From: a virus
Taxonomy: Duplodnaviria > Heunggongvirae > Uroviricota > Caudoviricetes
Virus record (IMG/VR): IMGVR_UViG_3300023371_000005
Length of the DNA: 64,000 nt
Strand: one strand, 5' to 3'
The notes below the pieces were generated by a model that was given only the letters and a program-made list of their open reading frames with translations, had not been told where the DNA came from and ran no database searches. The position numbers and the translations under genes were made by a program. Of the stretch, positions 8,319 to 58,069 are shown piece by piece; the first letter of the stretch is position 1, and each line of letters opens with the position of its first letter.

Positions 8319-8351
8319 GGGTAGGTTGTAGAAATACAACCTACCCTTTTT
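8319..8351 (+). terminator. Rho-independent terminator after the tape-measure gene
   Basis: GGGTAGGTTGTA-gaaa-TACAACCTACCC perfect 12-bp stem followed by TTTTT. Confidence 0.6.
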
Positions 8352-8374
8352 CTTATTTGGTCTAATATAAAAAA

Positions 8375-8403
8375 TTGACTTTTCTAAATTTTTATGATAT
8401 AAT
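8375..8403 (+). promoter_or_regulatory. Sigma70-like promoter: TTGACT, 17-nt spacer, TATAAT
   Basis: ttgact 8375-8380, 17-nt AT-rich spacer, tataat 8398-8403. AAAGGAG RBS 8418-8424 follows. Confidence 0.55.
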
Positions 8404-14038: not shown

Positions 14039-14404
14039 ATGAAAATGACAAATTTAGAAATTTATAATACTGCAAGTCACCTTATGGAGGCTTTCAGTGA
14101 TGGTAATCAAAAATTACCTGTTAAATTGAATTTCTTCTTACAGAAGAATAAAAAGACTTTATTGGGTTTAGCTCAAGAAATTGAAGAGGCTCGTTTGAAT
14201 GTTGCTAAAGAACTCGGCGTTCAAAATGAAAATGGTGGATATACCGTCGAACCTGAAAATGTTGATAAGGCCCAAGCTGAATTAACTCAGTTGTTTAATA
14301 TTGAGCAAGAGGTTGACATTGCTATGATTAGTTATGATGATCTCGATCCTGGTATGACAATGACTGCTGCCCAGATGGAAGCATTATTGTTCATGATTAA
14401 GTAA
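14039..14404 (+). CDS. Hypothetical protein, 121 aa
   Basis: ATG preceded by AAAGGAG repeats. TAA stop. No TAG. Confidence 0.5.
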   Translation: MKMTNLEIYNTASHLMEAFSDGNQKLPVKLNFFLQKNKKTLLGLAQEIEEARLNVAKELGVQNENGGYTVEPENVDKAQAELTQLFNIEQEVDIAMISYDDLDPGMTMTAAQMEALLFMIK

Positions 14405-14410
14405 TTATAT

Positions 14411-14446
14411 GGGCTACTGGAAATTTTCCAGTAGCCCAATTTTTTA
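14411..14446 (+). terminator. Rho-independent terminator
   Basis: GGGCTACTGGAAA / TTTCCAGTAGCCC 13-bp stem followed by a T-run. Confidence 0.55.
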
Positions 14447-14466
14447 GAGAGAAAGGAGTTAGAGTT

Positions 14467-17313: not shown

Positions 17314-20210
17314 TGGTTTATGATAAAAATTTTTTATTAGAGTTAGATAGAGATAAAAACAAAACCATTTATGCTCGTATCACAGCTTTGCGCTTTGATG
17401 AATCTCCTATTGAATTTATTGAAGGTCGTGTAACGCAGGGTTCCATCAATATCGATGGAACCTCTGCCATCAGACGCTCTTGTTCTTTAACCATGGTCGC
17501 CGCAGATTTTGATTATCGAAATTATTATTGGGGACTGAATACTAAATTCAAGTTAGAAATTGGATTGGAAAATTATATCAATCCTGCCTACCCAAAAGTA
17601 TGCTGGTTTGATTAGGGTGTCTTTTTAATTACTCAATTTAATACAAGTCGTAATGCCTCAAGTTTTAATATTTCTGTATCTGGTAAAGATAAGATGTGTT
17701 AGCTAAATGGTGAAATTGGTGGTAATTTTGAATCTTCTGTTGATTTCGGTCAAATTGAAGAACAAAATCCTGATGGCTCTTGGAAAATTACTAAACTTCC
17801 AATTCATCGTATTATTCGCGAAATGATTCACCAATACGCCGGAGAGCCTTTTCACAATATTATTATCAATGATTTAGAAGAATATGGTTTAGAGCTTTTA
17901 GAGTATCAATACGATGTTCCAATGTTTTTATACAGACATATTGATTCTCCAATTTATACAAACGCTTTATTAAAAGGTGAAGTCGAATGTAAGGTAGACA
18001 GAGTTAATCCAGAAACAAAAGAAGTAGAGCGAGTATCCATTCAAGTAAAAGATTTAACTAATACAGAATTAGAAATGTTAGTTGATCCATTGACTGGAAC
18101 ACCTAATCCCTCTGAAGTATGGATTTGGGACAGTGAAGAAAAGCAAGATATTCCTTATTATTTTGCTAAGATTGAAACTAATTAGACTGCAGGTTATCGA
18201 ACTACTGAGTTAACTTACCCAGGTGATTTGATTGCGGCCGCAGGTGAAACAGTTACTTCTGTTTTAGATAAGATCGTAAATATGCTTGGTGAATTCGAGT
18301 ATTTTTATGATTTATAGGGACAATTCATTTTCTAGAAAAAGCGTTCTTTTGTCAATACTTTATGGTCTCCATTGGTTGATAGTAGTTCCGATGATGAGGA
18401 TGGTTCTTATGATGAACAATATGTAGAAAGCTTGGCGATTGCTTCCTCTCAAAGTTATGTATTCCATGAAGGAGAGCTAATTACTGCTTTCAATAATAAT
18501 CCTAATTTGACTAATATGAAAAATGATTATTCAATTTGGGGTACTCGTGCTTCCGTTCAAAATACTGAAATTCCAATTCATATGCGCTATGCAATTGATA
18601 AGAAACCAACCTTCTACCGCACATATGACGGAAGTAAATTCTTTACAACTGAGAAAAAAACTGATGAAGATTTATATAATGAAATCTTTAGCGAGCTATA
18701 TGAAGAATTTACTAAAAAGCCAAATCCAAATGGATTACCGGAAGATTGGTGGGATATTATGGATTGGGCTGAAAGATATAAAATGCTAAAAGGTTTTTAT
18801 CCTCCTGGACGTATTGGCCAATACTGTTCTGAAGCAGTAAGTAAAAGAATTGATTTAAATTCTTATTTCCCTGCTCCTCCTGAGGATTAGAATTTGAATG
18901 ATAGTAGAGGTAAATGGAATCATTATCGTGACATTTATATCTTTGATGTAGAAAGTGATGGAACTCTTGGATATTATGGACATTATAATGGATGTACTCA
19001 TTATTATGAATATTTCTTAGAAAGAGCGTTAGAAGGATTAGGAACTTCTTACATTTATAAGCCAGAAATTCCCGAATCTGAAGGCGGCGATGTAAGTAAT
19101 ATTGTTGTTGATATTATGAAAAATCGTGTTTATAATCAAGATTGGCGAGAAATTATTTATCAAATGGCTTTAGACTATTATCAGCATGGTCAAGAAGAAG
19201 ATTTTGAGCAACGGATTATTGAAAATAATTATCCTTATTATCCTACTGGATTGACTGGATATGAATCTTATTATATTGATTTACAAGGCTTTTGGAGACA
19301 GTTATATTATCCCATTGAAAGAACTGTGCAAGAATACCAAGATGAAAAAGCAAAATTAATGGAAGAGAAAGGGTTCATTGGAAATTTTATTTATACTCCT
19401 GAATATATTGAAGAGAACAAAGAAGCATTATCTAACCTAGATAAGAAATTTGATTATTTCTTCTATGTAAGAAAAGAAAAGGACGAAGAAGGCGTAGTGC
19501 ATGAGCTAGATCGATTTGGACCTGAGCAAGAAGAAGATGAAACAGATGACGCTTATGCGGAAAGAATAGACGCATTGTTATTACAATTCCAAGATGCTTT
19601 ATACGTCACTTTAACTGAAATTGAAGAGCTTATTGCGAAGTGCGATACAAAAATTGAAGCAGTTGAAGAAGAAAGCTCTTATTATTATACCAAAGATGAA
19701 CTTTATCCTCATTGGCGTAAAGATGTTTATGAATCTCCTTAGAGCTTGAATTTCTGGTTTGACTTTTTAGATACAGATGGAGAACTGGCACAATTCAATG
19801 TGTAGAATGTCGGTCGTAGGCCAAAAGTTGTAAATGATTCAAGTGTAAAATCCATTTATTTTAGAGATACACCGGACATTATTTTTAGAACTGCTGATGA
19901 GGGAGAAATAATGACTGGTTATAGATACATTTAGGCTCCAATGATTGAGACCATGTTTAAGATTAGTACTCAAGGCAAATCCGCAAAAGATAAGTTAGAT
20001 GAACTAATTTATACTCATGGATATTGCATTGAAAATGCTACAATTACAACTATTCCAATCTATTATTTGGAACCTAATATTCGTGTGCATTTATATGACA
20101 ACGAAACCAATCTATGCGGAGATTATATTATTAGCAAATATACTATTCCATTAGCATATAATGGAACAATGAGTATTACTGCTACTAAAGCCGCAGAAAA
20201 TATTGTTTAA
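17313..20210 (+). CDS. Large tail structural protein, about 965 aa, 10 in-frame TAG. Start overlaps the upstream stop (TAATG).
   Basis: Track ORFs 17313..17615, 17823..18185, 18372..18890, 18894..19742 and 19941..20210 are all in frame 0. In-frame TAGs at 17613, 17700, 18183, 18315, 18333, 18888, 19740, 19803, 19932. Ends at TAA 20208-20210. Confidence 0.55.
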
Positions 20211-20595
20211 AAGGAGGACGGACGAATTGAAAGCTATTAGACAATTTAGATATTATGGATCTGATTTGATTAATAATGAATTTGCCAAAATAAATAATTA
20301 TCCAAATGATCCTTCTTTCCCAGAAAGATTGATCGGTGGTAATATTTTTAATGAATATAGCGCAATCACAAAGCTTGGTATTCAAGGTCGTCCAGGTACA
20401 ATGTTCTATTTGAATGATAGTAATTACCCAATCGTCATTGGCGAGACAGGTATTTATGAGATTGATTTAGAAGGTTATGGACAGATTTTCCGTATCAAAT
20501 TTGACGGTCCTTCATTGAAGTGGTACGATGAAGATGGCAAAGGCGACCGTCTTCTAATTGACATTGTATTTGAAGGGTCAGGTGGAAGCGCATGA
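20203..20595 (+). CDS. Hypothetical small structural protein. More likely initiates at TTG 20227, 8 nt after AGGAGG. TGA stop overlaps the next start (ATGA).
   Basis: ORF in frame 1. AGGAGG at 20213-20218. Stop TGA 20593-20595. Confidence 0.4.
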   Translation: MFKRRTDELKAIRQFRYYGSDLINNEFAKINNYPNDPSFPERLIGGNIFNEYSAITKLGIQGRPGTMFYLNDSNYPIVIGETGIYEIDLEGYGQIFRIKFDGPSLKWYDEDGKGDRLLIDIVFEGSGGSA

Positions 20596-22748
20596 GTTTT
20601 TATGGTAGCATATATTACCAATTAGTTGATGCTTTCAATCGACTATGGTTTAGTAACTAGGGAAAAGACAGCATTATTTTCCCCGGTGAAGATAAATTAG
20701 TAAATCCAAATCCTGCTGAGGGTGTTCCAGAAGATACTTTTGAATATCATTCTCCTGGACGCCAAGGTGTTATCGACTTAAAGTCTGGTAACAGATGGAT
20801 TGTTTTTACTTAGAATGAAGAAGATAAATCTTTCAAGATTTGGCATAGAGAAGCAGATGCCGAGAGTAATGTTCCTGGTAATGGTTTTTATCATGTTCCA
20901 AATATGTATTTGGTTGTTTAGCAAGATGGAGAAAAAATCGAATAGGTTATTGATAGATGTATTCAAGAAACTTCTGACAGAATTGCAGAAGAGGGCGGAA
21001 CTTTTACTTTAGAAGAGGGCTGTAGAGTAGTTGTTGAAATTCCAAGCAAAGAAGATAATGTTGATCCTTCTCATGCAATCTATAAATATACTATTGATGG
21101 TGAATGGGAAGAGGAATTAGAAGCAACTCAAGGAATGGTAACCATTCTAAATCCCGATGATTTCTTTGTAACTACTGAATCTTATGCTGTAGATGGAGCA
21201 GGACATATGATTCCTGGTACTCGTCATTTATACAAGATGCCAAAGTCTGATGTTCAAGAAGAAATTGATGCTCTAAAGGCTCGTATGACGAAGAATGAAG
21301 AGCACGATGGAGAGCAAGACGACGATATTGATCTATTGGAAGAATATGTCGGTGATTGGAATCTATACAGAGGCGCAACCAATGATAAAGGATTTAATTA
21401 TTGGATGCCGGGTGTCTCTGATGCCATTGGCGATATGTGTGAATTAATCGCAGGTCACCAAAATACTTTTAATGAAGATGGAAGCGTCAAAGATGTTTGG
21501 TCTGACTGGGAAGACCATCGTGATGTTAATATTGCTCGTGTTATCGGTAACTTAACACTATTAAGAGAAAGCTTAAAATCTTTTGATAATGCTCATTTTA
21601 GAGTTGATGATACTAAAATGAGTGATATTAGCTTGATTGATGTTATTTTGTATATTAAAGATAATTTAGTTGCGACAAATACAACAACTCTTACTGGTCA
21701 TAAAGGAAGACTTGATAACTTAACTGACGATATTAATAGATTAACTTCAGATACTTTAGCTTTGACAAAACGTGCAGATGACTTAGAAGCAAAAGATATT
21801 GAAATTGAAGCTGATATTGATGCAATTAACGATCCTGCTACTGGCATTTTGATTACTGCTAAAAATTATACTGATAGTTTAGCCAATGGCGCTGTAAAAG
21901 CAAATACTGATGCCATTGCCGCGATTAATGATCCTACTACAGGTATTTTAGCAAATGCTAAGTCTTATACTGATAATTTAGCAAATGGAGCAGTAAAAGA
22001 TAATACTAATGCTATTACCGCAATTAATGATAGTGAAACTGGTATTTTAGCAAAGGCTAATAAGTATACAGATGAATTAGCCAATGGTGCAGTAACAGAT
22101 AATGCTAATGCTATTATTGCAATTAATGATGGCGAAACTGGTATTTTAAAATCTGCAAATAATTACACTGATGATGAAATTGATAAATTAGATTATACTG
22201 ACAGTGCTGCCGATGGACAATATGTCTATTCTGTAAATGAAACTGATGGTATTATTGCAGTTGAGCATAAAGCTCTTCCTACTTATACTTTAACTTCTGG
22301 TAGTACCAATGGTACAGTCGCTTTCAATGGATCTGATGTAATTGTAAAAGGATTAGGTACTGCTGCTTATTCTAATACAGACGCTTTTGATGCGGCTGGT
22401 GCGGCCGCAACTGCCAAGAACGAGGCAATTGCTGCAGCTAAAACCGAAACTGAAAATCAGATATAGGCATTAACTGAAGGCGCTATTGCAACTGCCAAGA
22501 GTGAAGCAATTGCTGAAGCCAAAACTGAAACTGAAAACCAAGTAAAAGCATTGGCTGAAGGTGCTGTTGCAGACAACAGTGCAGCAATTGAAGATTTAGA
22601 ATTATTGCTTCAAAATTACAATGAACTGGTTGCGAAGGTAGCTGAGCTAGAAGGCAGAATTGCTGCCCTAGAACCCGCACCCGAAGAACCAGATCCAGAA
22701 GAACCAGATCCCACTCCAGGAGATGAAGGTTCTGAACCCACTACATAA
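20592..22748 (+). CDS. Tail fiber protein, about 718 aa, 5 in-frame TAG. Contains four tandem 33-aa repeats and a C-terminal EEPDP repeat.
   Basis: ATG 20592 overlaps the upstream TGA. Track ORFs 21135..22466 and 22551..22748 are in the same frame. TAGs near 20658, 20811, 20919, 20943 and 22464. Ends at TAA 22746-22748. Confidence 0.55.
21822..22217 (+). repeat. Four tandem 99-nt (33-aa) repeats inside the fiber gene. Unit: AINDPATGILITAKNYTDSLANGAVKANTDAIA.
   Basis: Units start at 21822, 21921, 22020 and 22119. Units are roughly 75-80% identical at nucleotide level. The fourth unit diverges after about 18 aa. Confidence 0.7.
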
Positions 22749-37490: not shown

Positions 37491-37599
37491 TGTTATTGGC
37501 CGAATAAAAATAATATACTAATCTCTTTTTTTATTTATATTAGAAAATAAAAAGAGATACTCTTTTTTTATAAAAATTTTTAGAAAAGGAGGAACATAT

Positions 37600-39705
37600 A
37601 TGGCAACTCTTCCACCCGATGGGATTTATAGTGGTTTTTATATTCGTTATTTTTTTGAAGGCGAAGAAATGACAGGCTACTATGGATCTAGTATGGGCAT
37701 TTATAAAAGTGGAGATCCCGTCGAAGCGACAGTTACTTCAGATTGGATTATTAATGGGCCTAATGGCGAAGCTGCTTTATGGTATTGGGATTCAAATTAT
37801 TAGAATGAAATTCAAATTGGTAGTTCATTAAGTTTTCAAGCTCATATTTATTTAGATGATGGAATCTCCTTTGGAATTATCATATATGGAAAGAGAATGG
37901 ATATCAAATTAAAGATGGGTGCGAAGACTGATCTTCCATCCAGTAAAAATAAAGGCACAGTATATTTTGCTAAAGATGGAGATAAAAACTTTGGTGAATT
38001 ATATTATGATGATGAAAATGGCAATCGAGTAAAAATTGGCGGTAGCAATATTAGCAGCGCTAAATTTAAAATTTAGTATAATTCTAGCAATATTGATTTA
38101 GTTGATGGCCTTAGATTAGATTTAACTTTTGAAGATGGAACTGTAATAGCTTCTAATTTTTTCCCTGAAGCAACAATATATAACCCTGGTTTAATGATGC
38201 CTGCCAAGAATAGTATTACAGAAATCCAATAGATGCCATTAGGATTGAAATCTTTTTATCCAGGCATTATAATTGGTACAATGCCTGCATTAGAATTAAA
38301 TAACGGTTATGCCATTGGAATTGGAGATGCTGCAGTTTTATTTGGAGATGATAGTACAGAATATAATAAAGTAGGAATAATTCAAAGTCCAGAAACTTTA
38401 ATATTAGCTACAGAGGATTAGACCGCAGTGTTTAGTGTAAGCAATTAGGATAATACTCCAGGAATAGTGGCTATGGCTGGTGATGCAAGTTTTACGCTTG
38501 CAGAAGGTTATTTTTGGACAGGTTCCTTAGGAGCTGAATCTAATTATATTCCTACTGCTTATATTGAAGAACTTCATTCCACTTCAATCAATGCAGCCCA
38601 GTTTGAAGGAGCTTTTGCTGGAGATTTAGAAGGTACAGCTAGAGATGCAACTTCTTGGACCAATGCAATTCTTTTAAATGGCACTGAAGTTAAAGGCGGA
38701 GAAACTGAAGCAATTACTACTGCTAAATGGGGTGCTGAACGCAATATCTCTATTTCTGGCACTGCCGGCACAACTGGAACTATTGTTGATGGTTCTAATG
38801 AAGATGGTTATACTCTAATCATTCCCGCAACTATGATTGGTTTCACTAGCATCACTTCTACTAATTTATTGGCAACTAACTTAGGAGCTGCTGGAGCCCC
38901 AGTTGAAGTTGCTCATTTTAAAGAAACTTATTTCCATAATCCTAATAATAATAACTATAAGCATAAGCTAACAAGTAATGCTGGTTCTGCTGATTGTGAA
39001 TTACAGCTACCTAATACTTCTGGCTTAATTGTTACTAAGGCTAGCACTACTGCGGCCGTTGGTGGTCTGAATGCACCAGTGTTTGTTGCTGCGAGCGGTG
39101 AAGTTACTGCTTGTTCTACTGTCTCTGTCGAGCATGGTGGTACTGGCGCTAACTCTTTAAGTGCTTATTCTTTATTATATGGCAATGGAACTAATGCAGT
39201 AGGACAGGTTACTCCTATGGCCGCAGGCCGTATTTTAGTATCTGGCGGTACTACTTCTGCTCCTCTATATGCTAGCCCAAGTTTAAGTTTCAGCACAGGC
39301 GCTTCTAATCCAACTATTAGTTTTGTCATTAATGGTGCTACTTATACTTCTACTAATGGCATTCAATCTGCTACTGGCGAAAATCCTGGTCTAGTTTCTA
39401 CTACTACTCAGACTTTTGCAGGAGCAAAGACTTTTACTGGAGCTGTTAATTTTAGCGCTGGTATCACAAGTACAACAGGTACATTCTCTGGACAAATCAA
39501 TGCTACAAACATCAAGTTGAGTGGTCAATTGAAGAGTCATTCCGCAGGTACTTCTTATCTAACTTTGACTGATACTAAAGCAACTGTGACTTCTCCAACT
39601 GTTTATTTAAATGGTACAACTATCGTTCTAAATTCTAGTAATTATGGTCCTACTTTACCAACTACTAATTTAGAAGAAGGTCGAATTTTCTTCTTATTGA
39701 CTTAA
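37600..39705 (+). CDS. Tail fiber protein, about 701 aa, 5 in-frame TAG, with the conserved phage-fiber HGGTGA motif
   Basis: Track ORFs 37600..37803, 38233..38421 and 38467..39705 are all in frame 1. TAGs at 37801, about 38074, about 38230, 38419 and about 38446. Motif VEHGGTGANSLSAYSLLYG. AAAAGGAGG RBS. Confidence 0.6.
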
Positions 39706-39737
39706 TAAAATCTAGGTGAGAAAGGAGAAAATATACA

Positions 39738-41912
39738 ATGGCAACTTATGATTGCACTATAAATGGTGTTCGTGCAAGAGTTGCTGCCACTGGAGTCTAC
39801 TGGTTTGGACCCTCTGGCGGCAACCTAGGCACTTCTACAACTGACGATGAAGGTTGGGGCGTTAATGATGGAGAAGATTTCTTCGGTGGAAATGTCAACC
39901 CCATGGCTTGTGATCCAAGCGGTAATAGTAAATTTACAGTTGCTATCAAAGTAACTACTCCAAATTTATCAAATGTTACTATTAGTGCTTTAACAATTAC
40001 AGTTCAAGGTTTTGACCATACTTACAAAGGTCTTACTTCTACTTATCCATTATATGCTAGTTTAAGAACTACTTCTACAAGTAGTAGTAGTGATACTTAC
40101 AGCACTTTTAGAAATTACGCAATTGGAAGTGAGGCTAGTACCAGTTCTCTTACTGGAAATTCTCTAAATCTTAATACTTGGTCTCCTACTTTCTACGGAT
40201 CTTTTTCCCCAAATACTTCATATTATTTATTCTTATATACTAAATCTACAAGCCAAATTTATGGTTTTTATCACAGTGGCGCAATTTGCACTGATGCTTA
40301 TGTTACTTATACTCAAAATGCAGCATCTTATACTGTAAGTTTGAGTAAAGGTACTGGTATCAGTTCTGTAAGTGGCGGTGGCACTTATACAGAAGGCGAT
40401 TTAGTAACCATTAGAGCTACTCCATCTTCTGGATATAGCTTTGTAAACTGGACAGGTTCAGAAACTTCAACCGCAAACCCTTATAGTTTTTATATTTATG
40501 GTAATAAGTCTTATACTGCTAACGCAAGTTCTGCGACTTATTTAGTTCAATATAAAGCTGGTACTTATGGTTCTGGTACAGAGAGTTCTGTTTATAAAAC
40601 TCATGGTACAAATTTAACCTTAAAAGGAGTGCAATTCACTCGTTCTGGTTATACTCAAACTGATTGGGCTTCTGACGCCGCAGGTACGGTATGGGTAAAT
40701 ACCTTAAATGGAACTTATCAGACAGATGCTCCTGCAACTTTTTATCCATATTGGACACCCAATGTATATACATTAACCATTAATCCAAATGGTGGTACAA
40801 TGTATAACGGTGACAATACTACTTCAAGTCCTTTTACCACAGAATTCTCTTATGGTACTCTAACTTATATTGGTAATTTAGATAGTTACGAAGGATACTA
40901 GCCAGACAATAAGCCAACAAAACCTGGTTATACTTGTACTGGATTTACTTTCTCTGGAGGCTCAGGTCAATAGAATACTAGTGGTGCTACTTTCTATTTT
41001 ATGGGCGATAATCCAGCCGCCGCAATGGTTACTGCTTCTGATACTCGCTCTTGGGTTTTCAATGGTAATTATGCTGGCAATGTAACTGCGACTGCAGAAT
41101 GGGTTGGAAATACTTATACTGTTGTTTATAATGCTAATGGTGGTACTGGTTCTATGGCTAATACATCTCATACTTATGGTGAAGGCTCTAGTTTAAGAAC
41201 TAATAGTTTTACCCATTCTGGTTATACCTTTACCGGATGGAATACCAAAGAAGATGGAACAGGAACTACATATGCTAATAATGCTGTAGTAACTGATTTA
41301 ACAACTACTGCCGGAGGAACTGTTACTTTATACGCTCAATGGGGTGAAGCCACTTATACAGTTATTTTCAATCTAAATGGTGGTAGTATTCAAAGTGGTG
41401 ATTTTAGTAATATGACTTGTGCTCGTAATACTAATTATACCATTCCTACTGGAACCATTGCAGCCAATGGCTTAATCTTCTTAGGATGGTCTACATCATC
41501 TTCTGCTACGACTGCGACTTATGAAGCTGGAGATACTTTCAATAATATTGGAGCCGCAGGCGCAACAGTTATTTTATATGCAGTTTGGGATACAAAAGAG
41601 TTTACAATTAAATATCATGACAATAGCAATGGTAATACATTAAGTGTTAGTTGTATTCCTGCAGCTACCACCAATACTTTTAGAACTCTTCCTTCTGGAT
41701 GGACGAAGGATGGCTATGAAGCTATTGGTTGGAGTAGATCTGCATCTGCCACTTCTCCTGACTATCGATTTGGTCAAGGATTTGTTGATGATTTAGGCGT
41801 AGCAGATGGAGCTACTTTAAATTTATATGTTGTTTGGACCCTGTAGCAACCATGGACTCTGACTCAATTATATATGTATATTGATTCTAGAGATTCATTT
41901 GTTCAATTCTAA
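39738..41912 (+). CDS. Fiber/adhesin protein with 4 Listeria-Bacteroides repeat domains (Flg_new type). About 724 aa, 3 in-frame TAG.
   Basis: Track ORFs 39738..40901 and 41001..41846 are in frame 0. TAGs at 40899, about 40971 and 41844. The frame continues to TAA 41910-41912. Repeats of the form TYTVxFNxNGG...GYTFTGW...TLYAxW. Confidence 0.6.
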
Positions 41913-45068: not shown

Positions 45069-45376
45069 TTATAAATGGCGTGCGCTGGCGGGTCCGGTTG
45101 GTCTCGCCAGCCCATCCAATGCTACTTACGCCTTGGAGAACTCACGCTCTTGGAGTTTGTGATAAAGTCACATAGACTATATGTATAGACAAGACTCTTT
45201 CCCCTCAACAACTAAAAGAAGTCTTATGTCATGAATTAGTTCATGCTTTTATGTTTAGCTATGCTGTGGATTTATCATATGATGAAGAGGAAATGGTAGC
45301 AGAGCTTATGACTGAATATGGAGAAGATATATTAGAACGGACAAACGCGATTTATAATGGTATAAAAATGAAATAA
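45065..45376 (+). CDS. Small HExxH metallopeptidase-like protein (ImmA/IrrE or SprT-like fold), 104 aa, one in-frame TAG
   Basis: Frame 2 reading: MIINGVRWRVRLVSPAHPMLLTPWRTHALGVCDKVT-TAG-TICIDKTLSPQQLKEVLCHELVHAFMFSYAVD... The motif I.ID..L....LKEVLCHELVHAF follows the ImmA-type pattern. Start ATG overlaps the end of the upstream gene. TAA 45374-45376. Confidence 0.45.
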
Positions 45377-45419
45377 GGGTCGATTATGAATAATCATAAT
45401 CGACCCCTTATTTTTTTTT
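45377..45419. terminator. Bidirectional rho-independent terminator at the convergence of the + and - arms
   Basis: GGGTCGATTATGA-ataa-TCATAATCGACCC 13-bp perfect stem. T-run on the + side and a T-rich tract on the - side. Confidence 0.7.
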
Positions 45420-45945: not shown

Positions 45946-46431
45946 TTAGGACCAATCGAATACTTCGACCTTATTTTTGGTATAATGAGCGCCAATACAA
46001 ATAGCATCACATTCATCCTGTGTTGGTTTTACATTATAGGTTTTTACAACCCAATCTTGTGCGGCTTTCTTCTAGGCTGGACGATCTTTTCCCTTGATAC
46101 CAAGAGAAGATTTCCAGACGGTAGAAAGAACGGCGGTTCGAGGCATTTTCATTTCAACAAATAATTCATGTAAAACGCCAAATACCTCAGCCAATGCTTT
46201 AAAGGTGGCTACATTATTGACAACATTATTTTGAAGTTGAATATCTTCAAAGACGACTTCGTCAATATCAAACTTCTCAATTAAACCAATAACTTCCTTG
46301 CGAATAAAGTGAAGTCTATCTCCAACATCGGTTTGAGTTGCGGAGAACTTGCCATAATTGTAAAGTTCACCATCATCAAATACTGCCCAACCAGTCACGC
46401 GACTGGCCTGGTCCAATGCAAGAGTTCTCAC
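45946..46431 (-). CDS. ruvC: RuvC-type Holliday junction resolvase, about 161 aa, with one in-frame TAG (46074-46072) upstream of the catalytic C-terminal motif
   Basis: N-terminus MRTLALDQASRVTGWAVFDDGEL (GTG start overlapping the dut stop). After the TAG the frame continues as KKAAQDWVVKTYNVKPTQDECDAICIGAHY...*. The DxxDAxxIxxH pattern matches the RuvC C-terminal acidic/His motif. Stop TAA 45948-45946. Confidence 0.65.
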
Positions 46432-47215: not shown

Positions 47216-47490
47216 CTTATTACCTCTACAACAATATTATTTCGACTATAATTCATTTTTGAGTAAGCAAGAATATCTTCGGAAACAGCATTACCGAAAA
47301 CACTATTGCCACTCAAATATACATGATCAATTTTCTTTTCATTACTGATTGTACTGATTACCTCTGGAAGTCCTTCCATGGTGGTAATTGCTACGCACTC
47401 TTTATCTCCAGTATCTGTATCAACGATATAGACTCTCTGGTGCAAATCGAACATATGTAATTCACAATAAATTCTTTTCATTTCATTCAC
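47212..47490 (-). CDS. Hypothetical protein, 92 aa, GTG start
   Basis: Continuous ORF. Overlaps its neighbours by 4 nt. Confidence 0.4.
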   Translation of the reverse strand: MNEMKRIYCELHMFDLHQRVYIVDTDTGDKECVAITTMEGLPEVISTISNEKKIDHVYLSGNSVFGNAVSEDILAYSKMNYSRNNIVVEVIR

Positions 47491-47980
47491 CTACCTGAAC
47501 TAAGCCACTATCATAAGGGAACAGATATAGACAGGTTGGGCCGTCATCTGTTTCCACCCAAATCTCCACGGCAGTGCCAGGTTCGTCGGGGTCAATGGCT
47601 TTAATTTTTCCCACATTTCGCAGACAATCAAGAACCTCTTGTGCGAAATACTGAGGCTCAATTAGTTTGAATACAGTAAAATAAGAAATCTCTTTACCGT
47701 AAAGCATATAGTATTTATTACGATACATTTCATGTAATGCTTCAATGGTTTGGATTGCCTTATTTAAATCAGCCAACTCAGGAAGCTGGGCGATAATTTG
47801 TTTATTCAAATCATATAGACCTAAATTCAAGCCTGCGCCATCAGTTCTCATTGTAACCCAATGACCGTCATGATATACGCGAATTTCACCTGAAATGGAA
47901 TCTTGAATTACTTCTCCTTCCATTGGTTCAAAATTGACTTGTGAAAGGTCCATTTTCTTGACAGTGAGTTTACTTCCCAT
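47483..47980 (-). CDS. Hypothetical protein, 165 aa
   Basis: AAAAGGAGG RBS. Lies downstream of the promoter at 48010-48038. Confidence 0.45.
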   Translation of the reverse strand: MGSKLTVKKMDLSQVNFEPMEGEVIQDSISGEIRVYHDGHWVTMRTDGAGLNLGLYDLNKQIIAQLPELADLNKAIQTIEALHEMYRNKYYMLYGKEISYFTVFKLIEPQYFAQEVLDCLRNVGKIKAIDPDEPGTAVEIWVETDDGPTCLYLFPYDSGLVQVGE

Positions 47981-48009
47981 ATCAAGACCTCCTTTTACTC
48001 TTTATACTA

Positions 48010-48038
48010 AATTATATCAATTTTTTTTATGTAAGTCA
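48010..48038 (-). promoter_or_regulatory. Sigma70-like promoter on the - strand: TTGACT, 17-nt spacer, TATAAT. Copy 1 of a duplicated 39-nt element.
   Basis: On the - strand: TTGACT (48038-48033), spacer TACATAAAAAAAATTGA, TATAAT (48015-48010). The 39 nt at 48001-48039 match 55591-55629 almost exactly. Confidence 0.6.
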
Positions 48039-48499
48039 ATTATACGCTGGTTGCGAGAGCCTCTCATTTCTAGAGTCAAATCTCGCTCTGCTTCAATATA
48101 TGGACCGTCGATTAGGACGTCCGCTAATTCCAGACATGATTTGACATGAGGGTCGCCAGACCGCAATAATTCTTCATAAGTGTAGCCGCTCCAAATATAT
48201 ATCTTCACTTCTGGAAGCTTATGTCTTACCTCTTGGAGAATCAAATTTACCAGAAAAGCATTTGCTTCACACAAAGGTTCACCGCCCATAATACATAAAT
48301 TACGCTTGATTCCTTGTGCGGTTAGTCCTTCTAAAATCTTATGTAAAGTATTATTTGTAAACTCCTTACCTCCATCAAAGGCCCAGGTGCCAGGATTATG
48401 ACACCCAGGACAATGATGAGGACAGCCTTGTGTAAAAAAGCTTACACATAAACCTGGAGCAGCGGTGATATCATTTAGTATCAATCCACTGTATCTCAT
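48017..48499 (-). CDS. nrdG: Anaerobic ribonucleotide reductase activating protein (radical SAM)
   Basis: CPHHCPGCHNP radical-SAM cysteine motif. About 160 aa. Adjacent to nrdD. Confidence 0.7.
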   Translation of the reverse strand: MRYSGLILNDITAAPGLCVSFFTQGCPHHCPGCHNPGTWAFDGGKEFTNNTLHKILEGLTAQGIKRNLCIMGGEPLCEANAFLVNLILQEVRHKLPEVKIYIWSGYTYEELLRSGDPHVKSCLELADVLIDGPYIEAERDLTLEMRGSRNQRIIDLHKKN

Positions 48500-51601: not shown

Positions 51602-54600
51602 TTATTCGTCTCCTTGATAACGAGCATCTAATAGTTTCAAATCACCATTAGGATAAATTTTATCAATTTTATATAACTGGTGTCCACCAGTTGAAGCATA
51701 CTTCTTAGAAATGAAATCATCACCAGAACGAATACCAGTTACCACAATCATATTACCTCGATTGAACCAGGACTTTTCCATGATCTTCTTAGTTCCATCG
51801 GGTTGACGAGCAGAAATCTGCTTATCAAATAATGTGAAATATTCTTTTCTAAATTTCACATTTACAACACCTGTGTTAGTCAAAATAGTAACTGTACTCT
51901 TAGTTTTATTCTTCGCGATACAAGTTCCGCAAATACGATTCAAGTGAAAGATATGGATTTCTTTGTCACCCTTTTTAAAAGTCTTTTCAATTACGGGGTC
52001 TTCTGGCAAAGCAAAGAAATCAACAAAGCCATACTTGTCATTATTTACATGAGCCAATTCGTGCTCATGATAATAGAAGCACAATACTTCCATCTCCCAT
52101 GCGGAGATACTGCCCTGGGCATATTTCTCCCAGTCTTCCATGAAGATTTTTGTATTCAATGCTTCAAGGATTTCTTCCTTATCAGTAGCAATCCAATTTC
52201 TGAAAATGTTCATATACTTCTGATATACATTATCCCAAGTCTTGACTTTGATAAACCAAGCGAGATTATCGCTTTCCATCAAGTCTTCACATTCAATTTC
52301 ATGTAAGAATGAAATTGCTCGTGGATCAAGACTATACATATCTTTGTAAGCACATTCATCAGCCTTTGTAATTGCTTTTAGATAACGATTGAACTCATAA
52401 ACTCTACGAGCCATAATTTGCTCTTCTGTGGATTCAGGTAATAAACCATGCTTGATAAGACCACCCATATTCTGTAAAGTCAAACGGCTCTTCTTATCAC
52501 AAGTCTCCCACAGATACCATGCCATTACGAAACGACGATCTTCCATATCATCAAAGGCACCGCCCTTGATTAGAGAAATCATTGCTTGCTTACCGGGCTT
52601 TACTTTCTGTAAGAAATCCTTGGGAGAAGCATATGGTCTATTTGCGATGATTGCGGCGATAACATCATCGCCGACATTTAGCATACCTTTCAAACCAAAC
52701 AGAATACGATTATTTTCCACGTCGGGAGCAAATCCAAATTGAGATTTATTGATATCAACCAGACTCACCTTGATGCCAGCCGCACGAATATCTCCAATTG
52801 CCTTAGCAATCTTACCATAGTCAGTGCTTGCGGTCTTACGAATCTTACCAGACCGATCGGGCAGATCCTGGAAAGTCACGCCTTCGCTTAGGTCTTGTCC
52901 TTCTGGCTCATAAATATCAACAATCTCTTCTTCACTATTATCTTCCAAAGAACCACTATTGACAATCAGACAAGCTGTATTCCAGTAGATGGGATTGAAA
53001 TTCATGGCAAGATAAATAGATTGCATACCAACGAATGAATAAGGTAATGAGTGATTCAAGCTAAATGCGTATCCTAACTGAGGGGCAACCGCATTTTCCC
53101 AGAAGTAATTCGCAGAATTGACATGGTCAAATCTACTATATACATCCTCGCGCAACTGCGGAATCTTACTCATTTGCTTTTTACCGACAATCTTTCTTGC
53201 GGTATTTGCTTCACCTAATGTGAAGCCAGCGACATCCATCAACAGTTCCATCATTTGCTCCTGGATTGCACAACAACCCCAATATTGATCACAATGCTTA
53301 TGCATCAACGCAATCATATTAGAATCAAGTCCTGCTTGAACCATTTCTCGATGAAACTCAGTCAAACCTTTCCGTTGAATACGGACGTATCTGTCCTGCT
53401 GAGACTCTTTGCCTTTTTCGCTCATCAGTCTCATCATGGCGTTTGCCGCAGTCATCTCCATAGGATTTTGAGGCTTCAACTTTTTCGCAATGGCTAGACC
53501 GACACCTGTGCTGAACTGAAACACGTCCAGAACATCACCGGCCGCAAGGTGATCCCAAATGCGCTGGTCAGTTGTATCCATTACTTCTGGATGGATATAT
53601 TTATTATATAATTCACGCAAACTCAAATCTGGAATTACTTTATCTGCTACCAAAAGTTCAAAACATTTAATAATCTTATCAGAAATTTCAGTAACCAGGA
53701 AGTCGTACTTAGTATCACCTGCGGCCTCAGCTTTATGTAGGTCATAACAGGTAATCAAGTCACCACTAGGAGTTCTCATAAAAGCTGCTGTATCAAATGG
53801 ATCATCACCATATAAGATAACACCAGATGCGTGAGAAGAACATTTATTTACAAGTCCATCAATGGACTTGATAATATTTAGCAAACCAGGATACTGATTT
53901 ACTTCTCGAATGAAAGCAACAACAGGCTTTCTGTCTTTACTTTCATTACCATTAACAACATCATCAATAGACCACAAAAAACCACGTTCCTGTGGGATTA
54001 GAGATGACATATATTGGGCTTGGTCGACATCAATTCCATCAGGAAAATCTTCACTTCGGTATCCTCGGCAGGCGGTAAGGATGGCTGATTTAGTTCCTTC
54101 TGTGCCGAAGGTTCCAACTTGGATAAGTCCAAGTTCACCTCTTTCTTTCCGAATTCTTCGAAAGATTTCTGGTCGCTTTGAGGGAGCGAGGTCAATATCA
54201 ATATCGGGCAACTCAGCTCTTTCTTTGTTAAGAAAGCGCCAATATGGTAACTTCCATCGTACTGGATCAAGTTGGGTGATACCCAAGAGATAGTTAGAGA
54301 GGAATCCAGTCGCTGAACCTCGTCCTGGACCAACGATACTGCCGCACTCCCAGAAGAGGTCAATATAGTGTTTGAATGTGTTGAAATAAGCGAAGAGACA
54401 ATCTTCAAGCTTTCTTCCAATGTCGTCAATTACGTCTGCCTCCGTTTCAAGTCTATCCCAATATTCTCTCTTATCAATGAAGCCTTTTTCGTGCATACTC
54501 TTCAAGCATTCACCCAACCAATATCTCTCTTGATCATTACCCGCACAAATAATGCGATCTAAAGTGGGCCACTGATAAGAATCCCATTGAATATCTTCTG

Positions 54601-55567
54601 GCAATAAATCCCAAAGATTATCATAAAATGGAACTTGAACTTTAGGAATAATCTGCTTACGCTCCAAAGAGTAATCTTCAATTTTACTCTGAGCTTCTAA
54701 GGTCGCCGCAAAAATATCATCAATATCAACATCACTAAATGACTTTGACAATAATGTTCGACACTCTTCTGGACTCATTAAATATGCGAACTCATAGAAG
54801 TCATCAACTTCTCGTTCACCATCTTTTGAGTTCAAATAAGATTTATGGACAAATCTATCTTCTTTTGTCAAATAATGAGAGTCAGTACCAACAACCATAT
54901 TGATACCATATGCTTTCGCAATTCTCATTAGTTTGCGGTTGACCTCACATTGTTGACTTGCGCTTGAGGGAGCGCACTCAATATAAAAATCATCACCAAA
55001 CAAGCCTCGACAATAATCAATAAAATCGCAAATCTGGTCATAATAAACCTTTGCGTTTACCATATCATTTACTCGTTCAGCCTGCGACATATTCCAGGCG
55101 GCGGTAGATAATTCACCACCAAGACAAGCAGAGGTCGCAATTACATGGCCACGATATTTGCTAATGATTTTAGTCATTTCTTCTTTCGTGATTGGCACAC
55201 GCTTCATACCTCTATCAGTATAAGCGTAATACCATGCAATAGAACTCAATTCACGAAGTGCCTTATGTCCGATGGCATCCTTCGCAACTAAAATAAAGTG
55301 ATAATATTTTATACCACTTTCTCGTTTATCTACTAAATAAACCTCATTGCCTAAAGCGATTTTGAAGTCGGGATGGTTCTTTTTAACTTCCTTCGCATAT
55401 TGATTTACTTCCATATGACCACTAATACATTCATGGTCAGTAATCGCAATGCCAGAAAGACCCAACTCAATCGCTTTGTCAATGAGGTCTTTTGGTCTAT
55501 TGATACAATCGAGCAAGCGGATATTAGAATACATAGTATGATTGTGAATATTGAAGTAAGTTGTCAT
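51602..55567 (-). CDS. dnaE: DNA polymerase III alpha subunit (DnaE-type) with an N-terminal PHP domain, 1321 aa
   Basis: PHP motif FNIHNHTMYSNIRLLDCINRPKDLIDKAIELGLSGIAITDHE. Length and architecture of bacterial Pol III alpha. GAGG RBS. No TAG. Confidence 0.75.
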   Translation of the reverse strand: MTTYFNIHNHTMYSNIRLLDCINRPKDLIDKAIELGLSGIAITDHECISGHMEVNQYAKEVKKNHPDFKIALGNEVYLVDKRESGIKYYHFILVAKDAIGHKALRELSSIAWYYAYTDRGMKRVPITKEEMTKIISKYRGHVIATSACLGGELSTAAWNMSQAERVNDMVNAKVYYDQICDFIDYCRGLFGDDFYIECAPSSASQQCEVNRKLMRIAKAYGINMVVGTDSHYLTKEDRFVHKSYLNSKDGEREVDDFYEFAYLMSPEECRTLLSKSFSDVDIDDIFAATLEAQSKIEDYSLERKQIIPKVQVPFYDNLWDLLPEDIQWDSYQWPTLDRIICAGNDQERYWLGECLKSMHEKGFIDKREYWDRLETEADVIDDIGRKLEDCLFAYFNTFKHYIDLFWECGSIVGPGRGSATGFLSNYLLGITQLDPVRWKLPYWRFLNKERAELPDIDIDLAPSKRPEIFRRIRKERGELGLIQVGTFGTEGTKSAILTACRGYRSEDFPDGIDVDQAQYMSSLIPQERGFLWSIDDVVNGNESKDRKPVVAFIREVNQYPGLLNIIKSIDGLVNKCSSHASGVILYGDDPFDTAAFMRTPSGDLITCYDLHKAEAAGDTKYDFLVTEISDKIIKCFELLVADKVIPDLSLRELYNKYIHPEVMDTTDQRIWDHLAAGDVLDVFQFSTGVGLAIAKKLKPQNPMEMTAANAMMRLMSEKGKESQQDRYVRIQRKGLTEFHREMVQAGLDSNMIALMHKHCDQYWGCCAIQEQMMELLMDVAGFTLGEANTARKIVGKKQMSKIPQLREDVYSRFDHVNSANYFWENAVAPQLGYAFSLNHSLPYSFVGMQSIYLAMNFNPIYWNTACLIVNSGSLEDNSEEEIVDIYEPEGQDLSEGVTFQDLPDRSGKIRKTASTDYGKIAKAIGDIRAAGIKVSLVDINKSQFGFAPDVENNRILFGLKGMLNVGDDVIAAIIANRPYASPKDFLQKVKPGKQAMISLIKGGAFDDMEDRRFVMAWYLWETCDKKSRLTLQNMGGLIKHGLLPESTEEQIMARRVYEFNRYLKAITKADECAYKDMYSLDPRAISFLHEIECEDLMESDNLAWFIKVKTWDNVYQKYMNIFRNWIATDKEEILEALNTKIFMEDWEKYAQGSISAWEMEVLCFYYHEHELAHVNNDKYGFVDFFALPEDPVIEKTFKKGDKEIHIFHLNRICGTCIAKNKTKSTVTILTNTGVVNVKFRKEYFTLFDKQISARQPDGTKKIMEKSWFNRGNMIVVTGIRSGDDFISKKYASTGGHQLYKIDKIYPNGDLKLLDARYQGDE

Positions 55568-55602
55568 TCTATTATCCTCTTTCTTTTTACTTATTATACT
55601 AT

Positions 55603-55631
55603 ATTATATCAATTTTTTTTATGTAAGTCAA
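55603..55631 (-). promoter_or_regulatory. Sigma70-like promoter on the - strand in front of dnaE. Copy 2 of the duplicated element.
   Basis: TTGACT (55631-55626), identical 17-nt spacer, TATAAT (55608-55603). Confidence 0.6.
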
Positions 55632-56755
55632 TCTTTGGTGACAATCACCAATTTCTCTGCCGCACGAGTGGCCGCAGTGTATAACCAACGAGCATGATCA
55701 ACGGGCTGGAAGGGGAACTTTTCTTCCAGAACCAAGACGTTATCCCATTCAGAACCCTGCGCTTTATGACAGGTAATGGCATATCCATAAGTAAATTCCT
55801 TTGGCACAACATCGCCAATACGATTTTTTAGCTTATTCAGCTTATACTTATCACGCCATTCAAGCTCGCTTTCGCCGCCCTTCATAATGCGAGGGTCCAT
55901 ATTGATATGACCATAATTCTCACCTAAGTCAGATTCAAATACACCAGTAAGGATATTGATCTTACCCTTCTCATAAGCGTAAAACGGGACATTGATATGA
56001 CTATACTTGGGATCATGTAATGTTCCAATAGTGCCATTTACCAATGGGTCGCCGTTAGTCAAATTACCCCAGTCCCAGTAATTCCGCAGACAAATAACTT
56101 TATCTCCTTCTTCTGGCTCAGGTCCAAAACCTCGTTGCTGACGCATGAAATCATTCATACTGTGCCGTTGTAGATTAGTCGCAACAAGAACCTGGTCTGC
56201 CCAATCAAGCATTCCGGTATTGAGCGCGCTGGCTGGATAAATTTGAACTTGGTCATTCTTTATATATTCCAAAGGCTTCTGGTCTCGAATATCCATAGTC
56301 AAACGGATAATACCAGATTCAGTAGCCTGTCTCATAATTTCATCAAGGAAGATATGAGGATGGTCAAGCAAATGATTATCCTCGTCTTTCTCAATGGGTG
56401 GCAACTGGAACGGGTCGCCAAGACAAATTACATATACATTATGGGAGAATAATTTATCCATAATACTCTTGGGCGCCATGGACACCTCATCAACCACAAC
56501 GACTGTATATTCCAAAGATTTCTTTGGGATTCTAGTAAATCCACCGCCTGGACGAGGCACGCTATCATAAAGCAGACGATGTAGAGTCATTGCGTTCTTA
56601 TTGCCCTTCTTAGCTAGAACCTGGGCGGCCTTGCCTGTAAAAGTAGCAAAGCAAACTTTATTATGTTCTACATCTAATGCTTCAATGATAAATTTTACCA
56701 GAGTGCTCTTTCCTGTACCTGCCTTTAGGCGTAGCCAGCAATCACAGTGTACTTT
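55628..56755 (-). CDS. Dda/RecD-like SF1 helicase. The track ORF 55628..56590 lacks Walker A. The motif lies in frame upstream as far as an in-frame TGA at 56758-56756. No in-frame start codon was found in that 165-nt stretch.
   Basis: In-frame upstream extension reads KVHCDCWLRLKAGTGKSTLVKFIIEALDVEHNKVCFATFTGKAAQVLAKKGNKNA-MTLHRL... (compare T4 Dda GPAGTGKTTLTKFIIEAL). Downstream motifs VVVDEVSM, GDPFQLPPI, YAITCHKAQGSEWDNV and YTAATRAAEKLVIV. Confidence 0.55.
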   Translation of the reverse strand, partial: KVHCDCWLRLKAGTGKSTLVKFIIEALDVEHNKVCFATFTGKAAQVLAKKGNKNAMTLHRLLYDSVPRPGGGFTRIPKKSLEYTVVVVDEVSMAPKSIMDKLFSHNVYVICLGDPFQLPPIEKDEDNHLLDHPHIFLDEIMRQATESGIIRLTMDIRDQKPLEYIKNDQVQIYPASALNTGMLDWADQVLVATNLQRHSMNDFMRQQRGFGPEPEEGDKVICLRNYWDWGNLTNGDPLVNGTIGTLHDPKYSHINVPFYAYEKGKINILTGVFESDLGENYGHINMDPRIMKGGESELEWRDKYKLNKLKNRIGDVVPKEFTYGYAITCHKAQGSEWDNVLVLEEKFPFQPVDHARWLYTAATRAAEKLVIVTKD

Positions 56756-56781
56756 TCATGTGCTCTGTGTCTGGCTACGGC
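56728..56781 (-). other. Strong composite hairpin enclosing the in-frame TGA and a 5-codon mini-ORF (ATG AAA AGT ACA CTG TGA) at the 5' end of the helicase gene
   Basis: GGCGTAGCCAG-caat-CACAG-(17-nt loop)-CTGTG-t-CTGGCTACGGC on the + strand. The helicase-frame TGA sits inside the loop. No U-tract follows on the - strand. Confidence 0.5.
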
Positions 56782-56816
56782 AATTTTCAAACCTTCTTCT
56801 TGCTTTCTTGTAAGAA

Positions 56817-57377
56817 TCACAGTTCTACTTCCTCTCTTTCTTCAATATTCAAATCTTCAATATTCCATAGATTATCATGTAGTTCTTTATGACAATTAGA
56901 ACAAATTAAAATACATTTTTTACTTTCTTCTACTGCTTCTAATAAGTGAAAATGGTCATTGCTAATTGTAAAATCTTTTTTAGAGGGGTCAATGTGATGA
57001 AATTCTAATGCTTTTATACATCTATCATATCCACATCTTATACATTTTCCACCACGAGATTCTTTTATTTTAGCTAAAAACATTCCTCTCGTTAATTGAA
57101 CTCCATTTGGCATACAGTTATAACAACAGGTTCTTTGATGAGCCGTAGAAGTTAAAGGATAAAATTCTTTTCCACAAATGGGACAAATTTTTGGTTTTCC
57201 TTTATAAGAAGTATCTTTTTGATTCTTTTCTTTATTGGCGTATTTTTCTCTGCGCGAAGCGTTTTGACATTCTATACTACAGTATTTTTTAGTAGAACGG
57301 ATTGCCTCAAATTCATTTCCACACATAACACATTTATTTATCATATATTTTCTCCTTTTTTGAAATATTTCTTTCAT
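56817..57377 (-). CDS. HNH endonuclease with N-terminal CxxC zinc-ribbon repeats. Likely a homing-type mobile endonuclease. Probable true start at the internal ATG 57344.
   Basis: C-terminal HHIDPSKKDF...NDHFH...CSNCHKELH HNH motif. Several CxxC pairs. AAAAGGAG RBS 8 nt before ATG 57344. TGA stop. Confidence 0.65.
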   Translation of the reverse strand: MKEIFQKRRKYMINKCVMCGNEFEAIRSTKKYCSIECQNASRREKYANKEKNQKDTSYKGKPKICPICGKEFYPLTSTAHQRTCCYNCMPNGVQLTRGMFLAKIKESRGGKCIRCGYDRCIKALEFHHIDPSKKDFTISNDHFHLLEAVEESKKCILICSNCHKELHDNLWNIEDLNIEEREEVEL

Positions 57378-57468: not shown

Positions 57469-57702
57469 TCAATCATGCTCTCCTATTGCTTCATCTAAAA
57501 TCTGAATAAAACGCATCATATCTCGTTCATGCCTACGTATGACAGCCTCATGTGCTTTTGGTTCAGAGAACCCTTTACACTTCATCAATTCAATTTTGTC
57601 GTGTTCAAAGGCTTTTGCCTGGTATTCCTTAAAACGGAATACCAGACTATCAAACATATAACCCTTTAAATGCTTATTATCACTAAAATGTACTTTTTCC
57701 AT
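57469..57702 (-). CDS. Hypothetical protein, about 77 aa. The track ORF 57469..57798 is trimmed to the internal ATG that has an RBS.
   Basis: Extended -10 TGGTATAAT (57730-57722) and an AAAAGG RBS upstream of ATG 57702. TGA-TAA tandem stop. Confidence 0.4.
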   Translation of the reverse strand: MEKVHFSDNKHLKGYMFDSLVFRFKEYQAKAFEHDKIELMKCKGFSEPKAHEAVIRRHERDMMRFIQILDEAIGEHD

Positions 57703-57739
57703 ACTAATACCTTTTATTTTTATTATACCAAAATATTTC

Positions 57740-58069
57740 TTATAAATCAATAAGGAACATATTGTTGTCCAATTTAAGAAAATCTTCATCCCACTCAATT
57801 TGGGGAAAAATTTCTAAATCGCTTTTTTGTTTTGGGTTTTCGGCTGGCGCGTCTGGCACCGGTCGGATGGCGTCTTGGAGAGCAATTATATTGGCAATAG
57901 CATTGCTTATCGCTCTTTCAAGTTCATCGACTCTACATTCAAGCACTCGAAAAGAATCACTCAATGTAGTTGCAGTACTAGCCATATCACAAGTTAGCAT
58001 ATCAACTCTATCTTGGATTAGATCAACCATGTACTTTGCGCCATCAGCAGTTAATACTTGTAATGCCAT
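57740..58069 (-). CDS. Hypothetical protein, 109 aa
   Basis: Continuous ORF with a GGAGGA RBS. Confidence 0.4.
   Translation of the reverse strand: MALQVLTADGAKYMVDLIQDRVDMLTCDMASTATTLSDSFRVLECRVDELERAISNAIANIIALQDAIRPVPDAPAENPKQKSDLEIFPQIEWDEDFLKLDNNMFLIDL

Follow-up and report, generated by a model that had tools for sequence, protein, structure and literature searches.

Two identical promoter cores on the minus strand of a 64,000-nt stretch of phage DNA (here called the window) are likely to be host primary-sigma promoters that act as internal boosters, that belong to a larger promoter class, and that were homogenized by a conversion of ~30 nt; the pair would reflect ordinary promoter biology and no special cassette. 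The core, TTGACTTACATAAAAAAAATTGATATAAT, is a 29-mer that occurred exactly twice on the minus strand of the 64-kb window, at 48039..48011 and 55631..55603. Each occurrence consists of TTGACT, the 17-nt spacer TACATAAAAAAAATTGA, and TATAAT, and the repeat noted in the initial annotation was confirmed. The second of the two 39-nt intervals given there (55591-55629) was displaced by ~2 nt, and the match of 38 of 39 nt claimed for the flanks was obtained for 48040..48002 against 55632..55594 but became 37 of 39 when counted from the first T of TTGACT. Similarity between the sites extended over 51 nt at 92% identity (repeat family D10), with copy 1 at 47990..48040 (minus strand; the core plus ~20 nt of putative initial transcribed region) and copy 2 at 55582..55632 (minus strand).

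AT-rich composition (GC 37-41%) is the one feature that would favor a chance match, or would favor reading the copies as pieces of a larger segmental duplication. Against chance, no further copy of the 29-mer was found at up to 3 mismatches in the 64-kb window beyond the two, and none of 100 dinucleotide-preserving shuffles contained a match at that threshold. Against segmental duplication, a possibility that the initial annotation had raised against its own reading, similarity stopped at 51 nt, and the flanks could not be aligned between the sites and encode unrelated proteins. Because the flanks are without similarity, the copies do not lie within a longer duplicated segment, and we regard both explanations as having a negligible probability. 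The window was 100% identical to part of an ENA contig (ERZ27248436:k141_1895590; 183,267 bp). Megablast of 9.5 kb around the repeat against 50,697 phage records gave no match, the exact 29-mer had no match in IMG/VR, a relaxed promoter pattern had none in GTDB genomes, and an Rfam scan of the whole window at gathering thresholds returned none. Blastn of the 76-nt element against phages gave weak, generic promoter-like matches only, mostly in Firmicutes phages.

Read from its elements, each copy is a sigma-A/sigma-70-type promoter with an extended −10 element (TGnTATAAT). The −35 hexamer of both, TTGACT, agrees with TTGACA at 5 of 6 positions; the −10 hexamer, TATAAT, agrees at 6 of 6 and follows a 17-nt spacer; and a TG dinucleotide stands one base before the −10 (TGATATAAT). 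Both copies thereby scored 11 of 12 against the consensus with TG before the −10, the best on the minus strand between 44 and 64 kb. We call the core at 48011..48039 (minus strand) PnrdG-down and the identical 29-mer at 55603..55631 (minus strand) PdnaE. PnrdG-down, which carries A8 in its 17-nt spacer followed by TGaTATAAT, scored 32.9 bits by position weight matrix (PWM) and has a predicted start near 48005-48003, and PdnaE scored 35.1 bits with a predicted start near 55597-55595. The distance from the −10 to the ATG is 30 nt at the nrdG site and 35 nt at the dnaE site, with GGAGG or AGAGG as the Shine-Dalgarno sequence. A role as a replication origin or iteron was rejected on the fixed distance to the Shine-Dalgarno sequence and start codon and on the match at every defining promoter position.

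The window is laid out as a plus-strand structural array (1 to ~45.3 kb) that meets a convergent minus-strand array of replication and nucleotide-metabolism genes (64 down to 45.4 kb), with a bidirectional intrinsic terminator between them at 45375..45408 (perfect hairpin of 13 to 15 bp, with T-runs on both strands). Within the window, no convincing terminator hairpin was found in the minus-strand array ahead of 45375-45408. By Pfam, that array encodes a DnaB-like helicase, a primase, a RecJ-like protein, an SF1 helicase fragment, DnaE, a guanylate-kinase-like protein, NrdD, and NrdG and, beyond the nrdG-site promoter, three small genes, a dUTPase, and a weak sub-threshold RuvC match. The gene context that the initial annotation had described for the two copies (nrdG, dut, and ruvC; helicase and dnaE) was thus borne out by Pfam, with RuvC as the weak match. 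The nrdG gene (48017..48499, minus strand; Fer4_12, 2.6e-37) precedes PnrdG-down, and the first gene after it, at 47483..47980 (minus strand), encodes 165 aa and starts the small-gene/dut/ruvC cluster. The first gene after PdnaE is dnaE itself (51602..55567, minus strand), which encodes a YorL-like DNA polymerase III alpha subunit with ~38% amino acid identity to SPbeta YorL and to that of gut phage Phass-1, and neighboring genes match the SPbeta families YorF, YorH, and YomU.

Both promoters overlap the gene before them, a detail absent from the initial annotation. The nrdG stop is a TGA within TTGATATAAT, the extended −10, and the last seven codons (IDLHKKN) are encoded by the −35 and spacer. 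At PdnaE, the TGA stop of an SF1 helicase fragment (UvrD/AAA_30; 55628..56590, minus strand; 320 aa) sits inside the −35 TTGACT. The helicase terminates at a TGA within a −35 of the form TTGA(C/T) both here and in the related loci L003, L039, L040, and L041, and the TGA in the dnaE-promoter −35 of L014 ends an unrelated inserted gene. The helicase fragment of the window is N-terminally truncated, with its AAA_30 match beginning at profile position 71, and an intact 402-aa helicase was present in two sister strains (L039, 16169-17377; L040, 16434-17642). In the window (55628-57377, minus strand), the 5′ part of the helicase is replaced by a 186-aa open reading frame (ORF) that has an HNH-like Cys/His motif (CIRCGY…FHHIDP…CSNCH) and had no Pfam match; from 56704 on, the sequence is again homologous to the intact helicase.

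PdnaE would drive dnaE and the genes after it, and PnrdG-down would drive the small-gene/dut/ruvC cluster. Sigma region 4 would read TTGACT, region 3 the TG at −15/−14, and region 2 TATAAT, and the A/T-tract spacer and AT-rich discriminator would favor strong, factor-independent initiation. The A/T tract is probably read through contacts between RNA polymerase (RNAP) and the spacer (PMC3130263, PMC3173786, PMC8695583). Initiation is predicted at an A ~6 to 8 nt past the −10, giving predicted leaders of ~25 to 30 nt with a Shine-Dalgarno sequence. Folding of ~100 nt around each focal copy revealed no structure beyond that of shuffled sequences and no hairpin followed by a T-run (z = 0.80 and −0.16). 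Because no terminator precedes either focal copy, both promoters, overlapping upstream stop codons, would serve as internal boosters within a long co-directional read-through array.

The two promoters belong to a class. A consensus built from 18 non-redundant sites in relatives consists, in order, of TTGACTTA, ~4 free positions, an A/T tract free of G and C, TGnTATAAT, and AWAWRTA, and its −35 can be abbreviated to TTGAyw. The TG was invariant in 36 of 36 class sites, an invariance that follows by construction, since the regular expression used to find the sites demanded both TG and TATAAT. The A/T tract occupies spacer positions 14 to 20 and is common to the 18 non-redundant members, appearing in relatives as A5 to A8 or as A/T mixtures, and the non-tract spacer positions (9 to 12) vary freely among orthologues. 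Because the tract is common to the whole class, the spacer is not neutral filler, contrary to its description as "non-functional" in the initial annotation, and RNAP is known to respond to the sequence of the spacer (PMC3130263, PMC3173786, PMC8695583; reviewed in PMC2613000). Slipped-strand phase variation at the A8 tract was rejected, the 17-nt spacer being kept in every copy and orthologue read.

A PWM made only from the relatives' sites picked out four sites in the 64-kb window and no others. Each scored at least 30 bits, no score fell between 12 and 30 bits in the window, and the maximum in shuffles was 14. The third site, TTGATTTATAAGAAATATTTTGGTATAAT (57722..57750, minus strand; 37.6 bits), lies upstream of a 74-aa gene (57469..57693), and the fourth, TTGACTTTTCTAAATTTTTATGATATAAT (8375..8403, plus strand; 30.6 bits), lies upstream of a 1859-codon ORF with TAG codons. 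All four are oriented with their genes and stand 19 to 35 nt before a start codon with a Shine-Dalgarno sequence. Five more co-directional copies were found in the 9.6 kb past the window end (identical contig, L038), where they precede a ligase gene, several small ORFs, one uncharacterized gene, and a YorH-like gene, and another copy was found in the structural region ~1.8 kb before the window start. The plus-strand member is part of a terminator-promoter composite in which the TAA stop of a tape-measure-like ORF (8310-8312) is followed by an intrinsic terminator hairpin with a T-run (8319..8357, plus strand; 12-bp stem; minimum free energy, −34.8 kcal/mol; z = −4.5) and then by the promoter. 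We conclude that the class, as defined by its consensus, is made up of at least 10 promoters in the window and the 16 kb flanking it, counted over the same or near-identical genomes.

Conservation was assessed at 26 IMG/VR loci that encode DnaE at 53 to 84% amino acid identity, 23 of which include the dnaE start. A class promoter lay directly upstream of dnaE at all 23, and one followed nrdG in L002, L003, L007, and L014, the relatives in which the nrdG site was identified. Both sites are syntenic in relatives. The exact 29-mer was present at the nrdG site of L028 (78% identical flanks) and of L034 (92%), and eleven metagenome contigs matched TTGACTTANNNAAAAAAAATTGATATAAT, all at the nrdG site and none at the dnaE site, with flanks 70 to 92% identical. 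A look-up with NrdG returned the window's own genotype only, and one for the dNMP-kinase protein found no entry. The claim of a conserved early promoter thus held in part: promoters of the same class occupy both sites in relatives across that range of DnaE identity, but the class is also found on the plus strand at 8375..8403 and in the structural region outside the window. A sigma-A-type member is present in the late region as well, so the class marks out no specifically "early" regulon.

Membership in one class does not by itself yield identical cores. Pairs of class members shared on average 19.8 and at most 26 of 29 positions, and identity between two members drawn independently from the class had a probability of 4e-6. 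Within a genome, PdnaE and PnrdG-down agreed at 29 of 29 positions in the window and at 21 to 24 of 29 in four relatives. When each part of the dnaE-site promoter was compared separately, the core and the 5′ untranslated region (5′UTR) had different nearest relatives. The window's PdnaE core matched nrdG-site promoters at 29 of 29 positions (window, L028, and L034), 27 of 29 (L002 and L014), or 24 of 29 (L003), and matched its dnaE-site orthologues at 21 to 25 of 29. Its 5′UTR, in turn, was 0.62 to 0.71 identical to nrdG-site 5′UTRs and 0.92 (L041), 0.82 (L003), or 0.66 to 0.69 (L001 and L014) identical to those of dnaE-site orthologues. Because the PdnaE core groups with nrdG-site promoters and its 5′UTR with dnaE orthologues, the comparison points to gene conversion in which nrdG-site sequence overwrote a tract of ~30 nt, from −35 to −10, at the dnaE site.

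In the nrdG-site copy, ATTGACTTA specifies I-D-L, which follows on from the RII encoded upstream, and the A-tract specifies Lys-Lys(-Asn) of NrdG. Because the same bases encode these residues, the nrdG-site copy is doubly constrained and old. The dnaE-site core is identical in L039 and L040 (90 to 94% nucleotide identity) and different in L041 (85 to 87%). The conversion thus looks recent, having taken place in the sub-lineage of the window, L039, and L040, and the full 29-of-29 identity looks specific to that lineage.

The two cores might instead have arrived at the same optimal sequence independently, with no recombination. The class is strongly constrained, with 16 of 29 positions fixed or nearly so, and the window's PdnaE core differs from that of L041 at just 5 of 29 positions, a figure near the regional divergence. 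The positions that would have had to converge, however, are spacer positions 8 to 12, which carry low information in the class (0.2 to 0.7 bits) and vary freely in orthologues; no other class pair exceeded 26 of 29; and convergence would leave the discordant nearest relatives of the PdnaE core and 5′UTR unexplained. Convergent substitution toward an optimum is unlikely, as is divergence in the L041 line in place of conversion, and we give independent convergence on one optimal sequence only a small chance of being correct. We conclude that conversion of a short tract is the better account of the identity.

Identity that includes the spacer could also mean that the A8 tract and its neighbors are bound by a regulator, of phage or host origin, that controls the two operons jointly and whose binding keeps the copies identical, and the conservation of an A/T tract across the class would agree with such a site. 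A search for inverted repeats of at least 8 nt found none in or around either copy, however, and the sole spacer feature kept in relatives is the generic A/T tract, which RNAP-spacer contacts can explain (PMC3130263, PMC3173786). Moreover, the lower agreement of the same two promoters in the four relatives (21 to 24 of 29) is not what a shared site would maintain, and the nrdG-site tract doubles as coding sequence for Lys-Lys-Asn of NrdG. A regulator site embedded in the A8 spacer, as the initial annotation had proposed, is therefore very improbable. Its other proposal, a short mobile element, gained no support: a class promoter stood at the dnaE site of all relatives and at each nrdG site that was identified, and an inverted-repeat search detected no terminal repeats. 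We conclude, because both sites are syntenic in relatives, that the repeat is not a mobile element.

The suggestion that the copies are recombinogenic and mark module boundaries fared less simply. The cores look like the product of a 30-nt conversion, and two strain-level breakpoints fell at promoter edges, but selection for intergenic junctions could alone produce that coincidence. A fuller form of the idea would make the promoter a portable recombinogenic cassette, similar to the promoter-early stem-loop cassettes (PeSLs) of T4-type phages, that mediates module shuffling and marks boundaries. In its favor, a 30-nt core appears to have been transplanted between sites, and L039 switches, at precisely the 3′ edge of the 57750 promoter, to a downstream gene of L001 type; that promoter forms a block of ~46 nt that is near-invariant across 6 genomes with diverging flanks. 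Likewise, L014 carries a 658-nt insertion, past which its homology to L002 starts again right at base 1 of the dnaE −35, and the plus-strand copy at 8375 is a terminator-promoter composite. Weighing on the other side, neither focal copy has a stem-loop, both sites keep the same syntenic position in all relatives, so neither has moved, and a promoter was touched by just 2 of the ~8 breakpoints inspected. Selection, moreover, would leave breakpoints at gene boundaries in any case. Because a viable junction has to lie between genes, where the space is taken up by promoters, the promoter-edge junctions are suggestive only, and a shuffling cassette seems unlikely to us. A related version, in which the near-identical cores act as short homology patches for exchanging regulatory cores and swapping adjacent genes in large TAG-recoded, Clostridia-associated phages, is a tentative proposal that we likewise doubt. 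We conclude that homogenization of two ordinary class promoters remains the preferred account of the pair.

The window also departs from the standard genetic code. TAG is evidently read as sense in the late/structural genes (3-22748 and 37522-41912, plus strand). With TAG open, plus frame 3 is uninterrupted between 3 and 8312 (2769 codons, of which 28 are TAG), extending past the window start, and this ORF looks like a tape measure gene by its size and by its position after the tail-tube gene. Further TAG-open ORFs on the plus strand span 8434-14013, 14401-17313, 17307-20210, and 20574-22748, and eight consecutive "standard" ORFs in one frame were separated by TAG alone. Long ORFs ended in 15 TAG, 10 TAA, and 0 TGA on the plus strand and in 11 TAA, 8 TGA, and 1 TAG on the minus strand. 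A tRNA scan of the window found no genes, and so no suppressor tRNA there. A fibre-like protein contains in-frame tandem coding repeats on the plus strand (3 units of 99 nt, 71 to 77%, at 21816-22112; 2 units of 81 nt, 81%, at 22407-22568), and a TAG in the first 81-nt unit aligns with AAA (Lys) in the second.

Recoding was also apparent within the minus-strand array. The RuvC-like gene (45946-46431, minus strand) has an in-frame TAG at codon 119, past which the C-terminal part (…DECDAICIG…) stays in frame. With TAG read through, the Pfam RuvC match covered profile positions 2 to 142 of 148 at 20.7 bits against a cutoff of 22.2. Because that match spans the in-frame TAG, a recoded gene appears to end the otherwise standard-code nrdG-site operon. 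A single host type of promoter stands before both the standard-code replication genes and genes that contain TAG (the 1859-codon ORF after 8375; ruvC). This would fit a published proposal in which translation sets part of the timing in recoded phages. TAG recoding is known in gut phages (PMC10607447; bioRxiv 10.1101/2021.08.26.457843; PMC9523058).

Two observations touch on the host and on the quality of one assembly. The relatives L044 (JAZNWP010000048.1; 176 kb) and L045 (JAFTFU010000004.1; 121 kb) come from metagenome-assembled genome bins labeled Acutalibacteraceae and Clostridia (roe deer abomasum). Because these contigs are phage-sized, the binning gives only a weak hint of the host. The distant phAss-1 group has a predicted Clostridia host (PMC10607447). 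A record of 402,311 bp, IMGVR_UViG_3300032167_000002, contained two different relatives of the dnaE region, L005 and L010, at 81% and 78% amino acid identity to the window and ~190 kb apart; the assembly has probably joined two related phages, as a chimera or a concatenation.

Several known systems resemble what is described here. Extended −10 promoters are typical of Gram-positive bacteria and their phages, and reiterated strong early promoters occur in SPO1, T5, and lactococcal phages. The class shares with extended −10 primary-sigma promoters (the "−16 region", TRTGnTATAAT) the −35, the 17-nt spacer, the TG, the TATAAT, and an AT-rich spacer and discriminator, and shares with phage primary-sigma promoters the presence of many near-identical copies per genome, each before a Shine-Dalgarno sequence and start codon. 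It differs from extended −10 promoters at large in an unusually sharp consensus, with its A/T homopolymer tract and AWAWRTA start region, and in its frequent overlap with the stop codon of the upstream gene. For an uncultured clade of large gut phages, the work supplies a promoter model (a 40-nt consensus with 10 mapped instances) that can aid operon annotation and provide strong promoters for work in Clostridia. It also gives a clear instance in which a short tract of one promoter was probably converted by a paralogue, and it reveals no new regulatory principle.

Among phages, the closest parallel is phAss-1/"Phassvirus", which likewise has a large genome, a YorL-like DnaE (38% amino acid identity), NrdD/NrdG, a dUTPase, virion genes, the tape measure among them, that contain TAG in frame, and a host that probably belongs to Clostridia. 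The relation to phAss-1 is distant, however, and there was no nucleotide match in the phage collection. Promoters were not analyzed in the phAss-1 paper, in which the word "promoter" occurs 0 times (PMC10607447). Among regulatory elements, the closest parallel is the PeSL of T4-type phages, which combines a promoter with a terminator stem-loop and flanks non-essential ORFan genes in hyperplastic regions (PMC2839356, PMC4122927). PeSLs and the class described here have in common repeated, strong sigma-70-like promoters, near-identical copies, signs of sequence exchange between them, and, in a few cases, a position that coincides with a gene-replacement junction. Unlike PeSLs, the focal copies have no stem-loop and stand at fixed syntenic positions before core replication genes, and of all the copies only the plus-strand one at 8375 has a terminator stem-loop (8319-8357). 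If the homology-patch reading were true, the class would be a terminator-less, Gram-positive counterpart of PeSL-mediated shuffling in T4-type phages.
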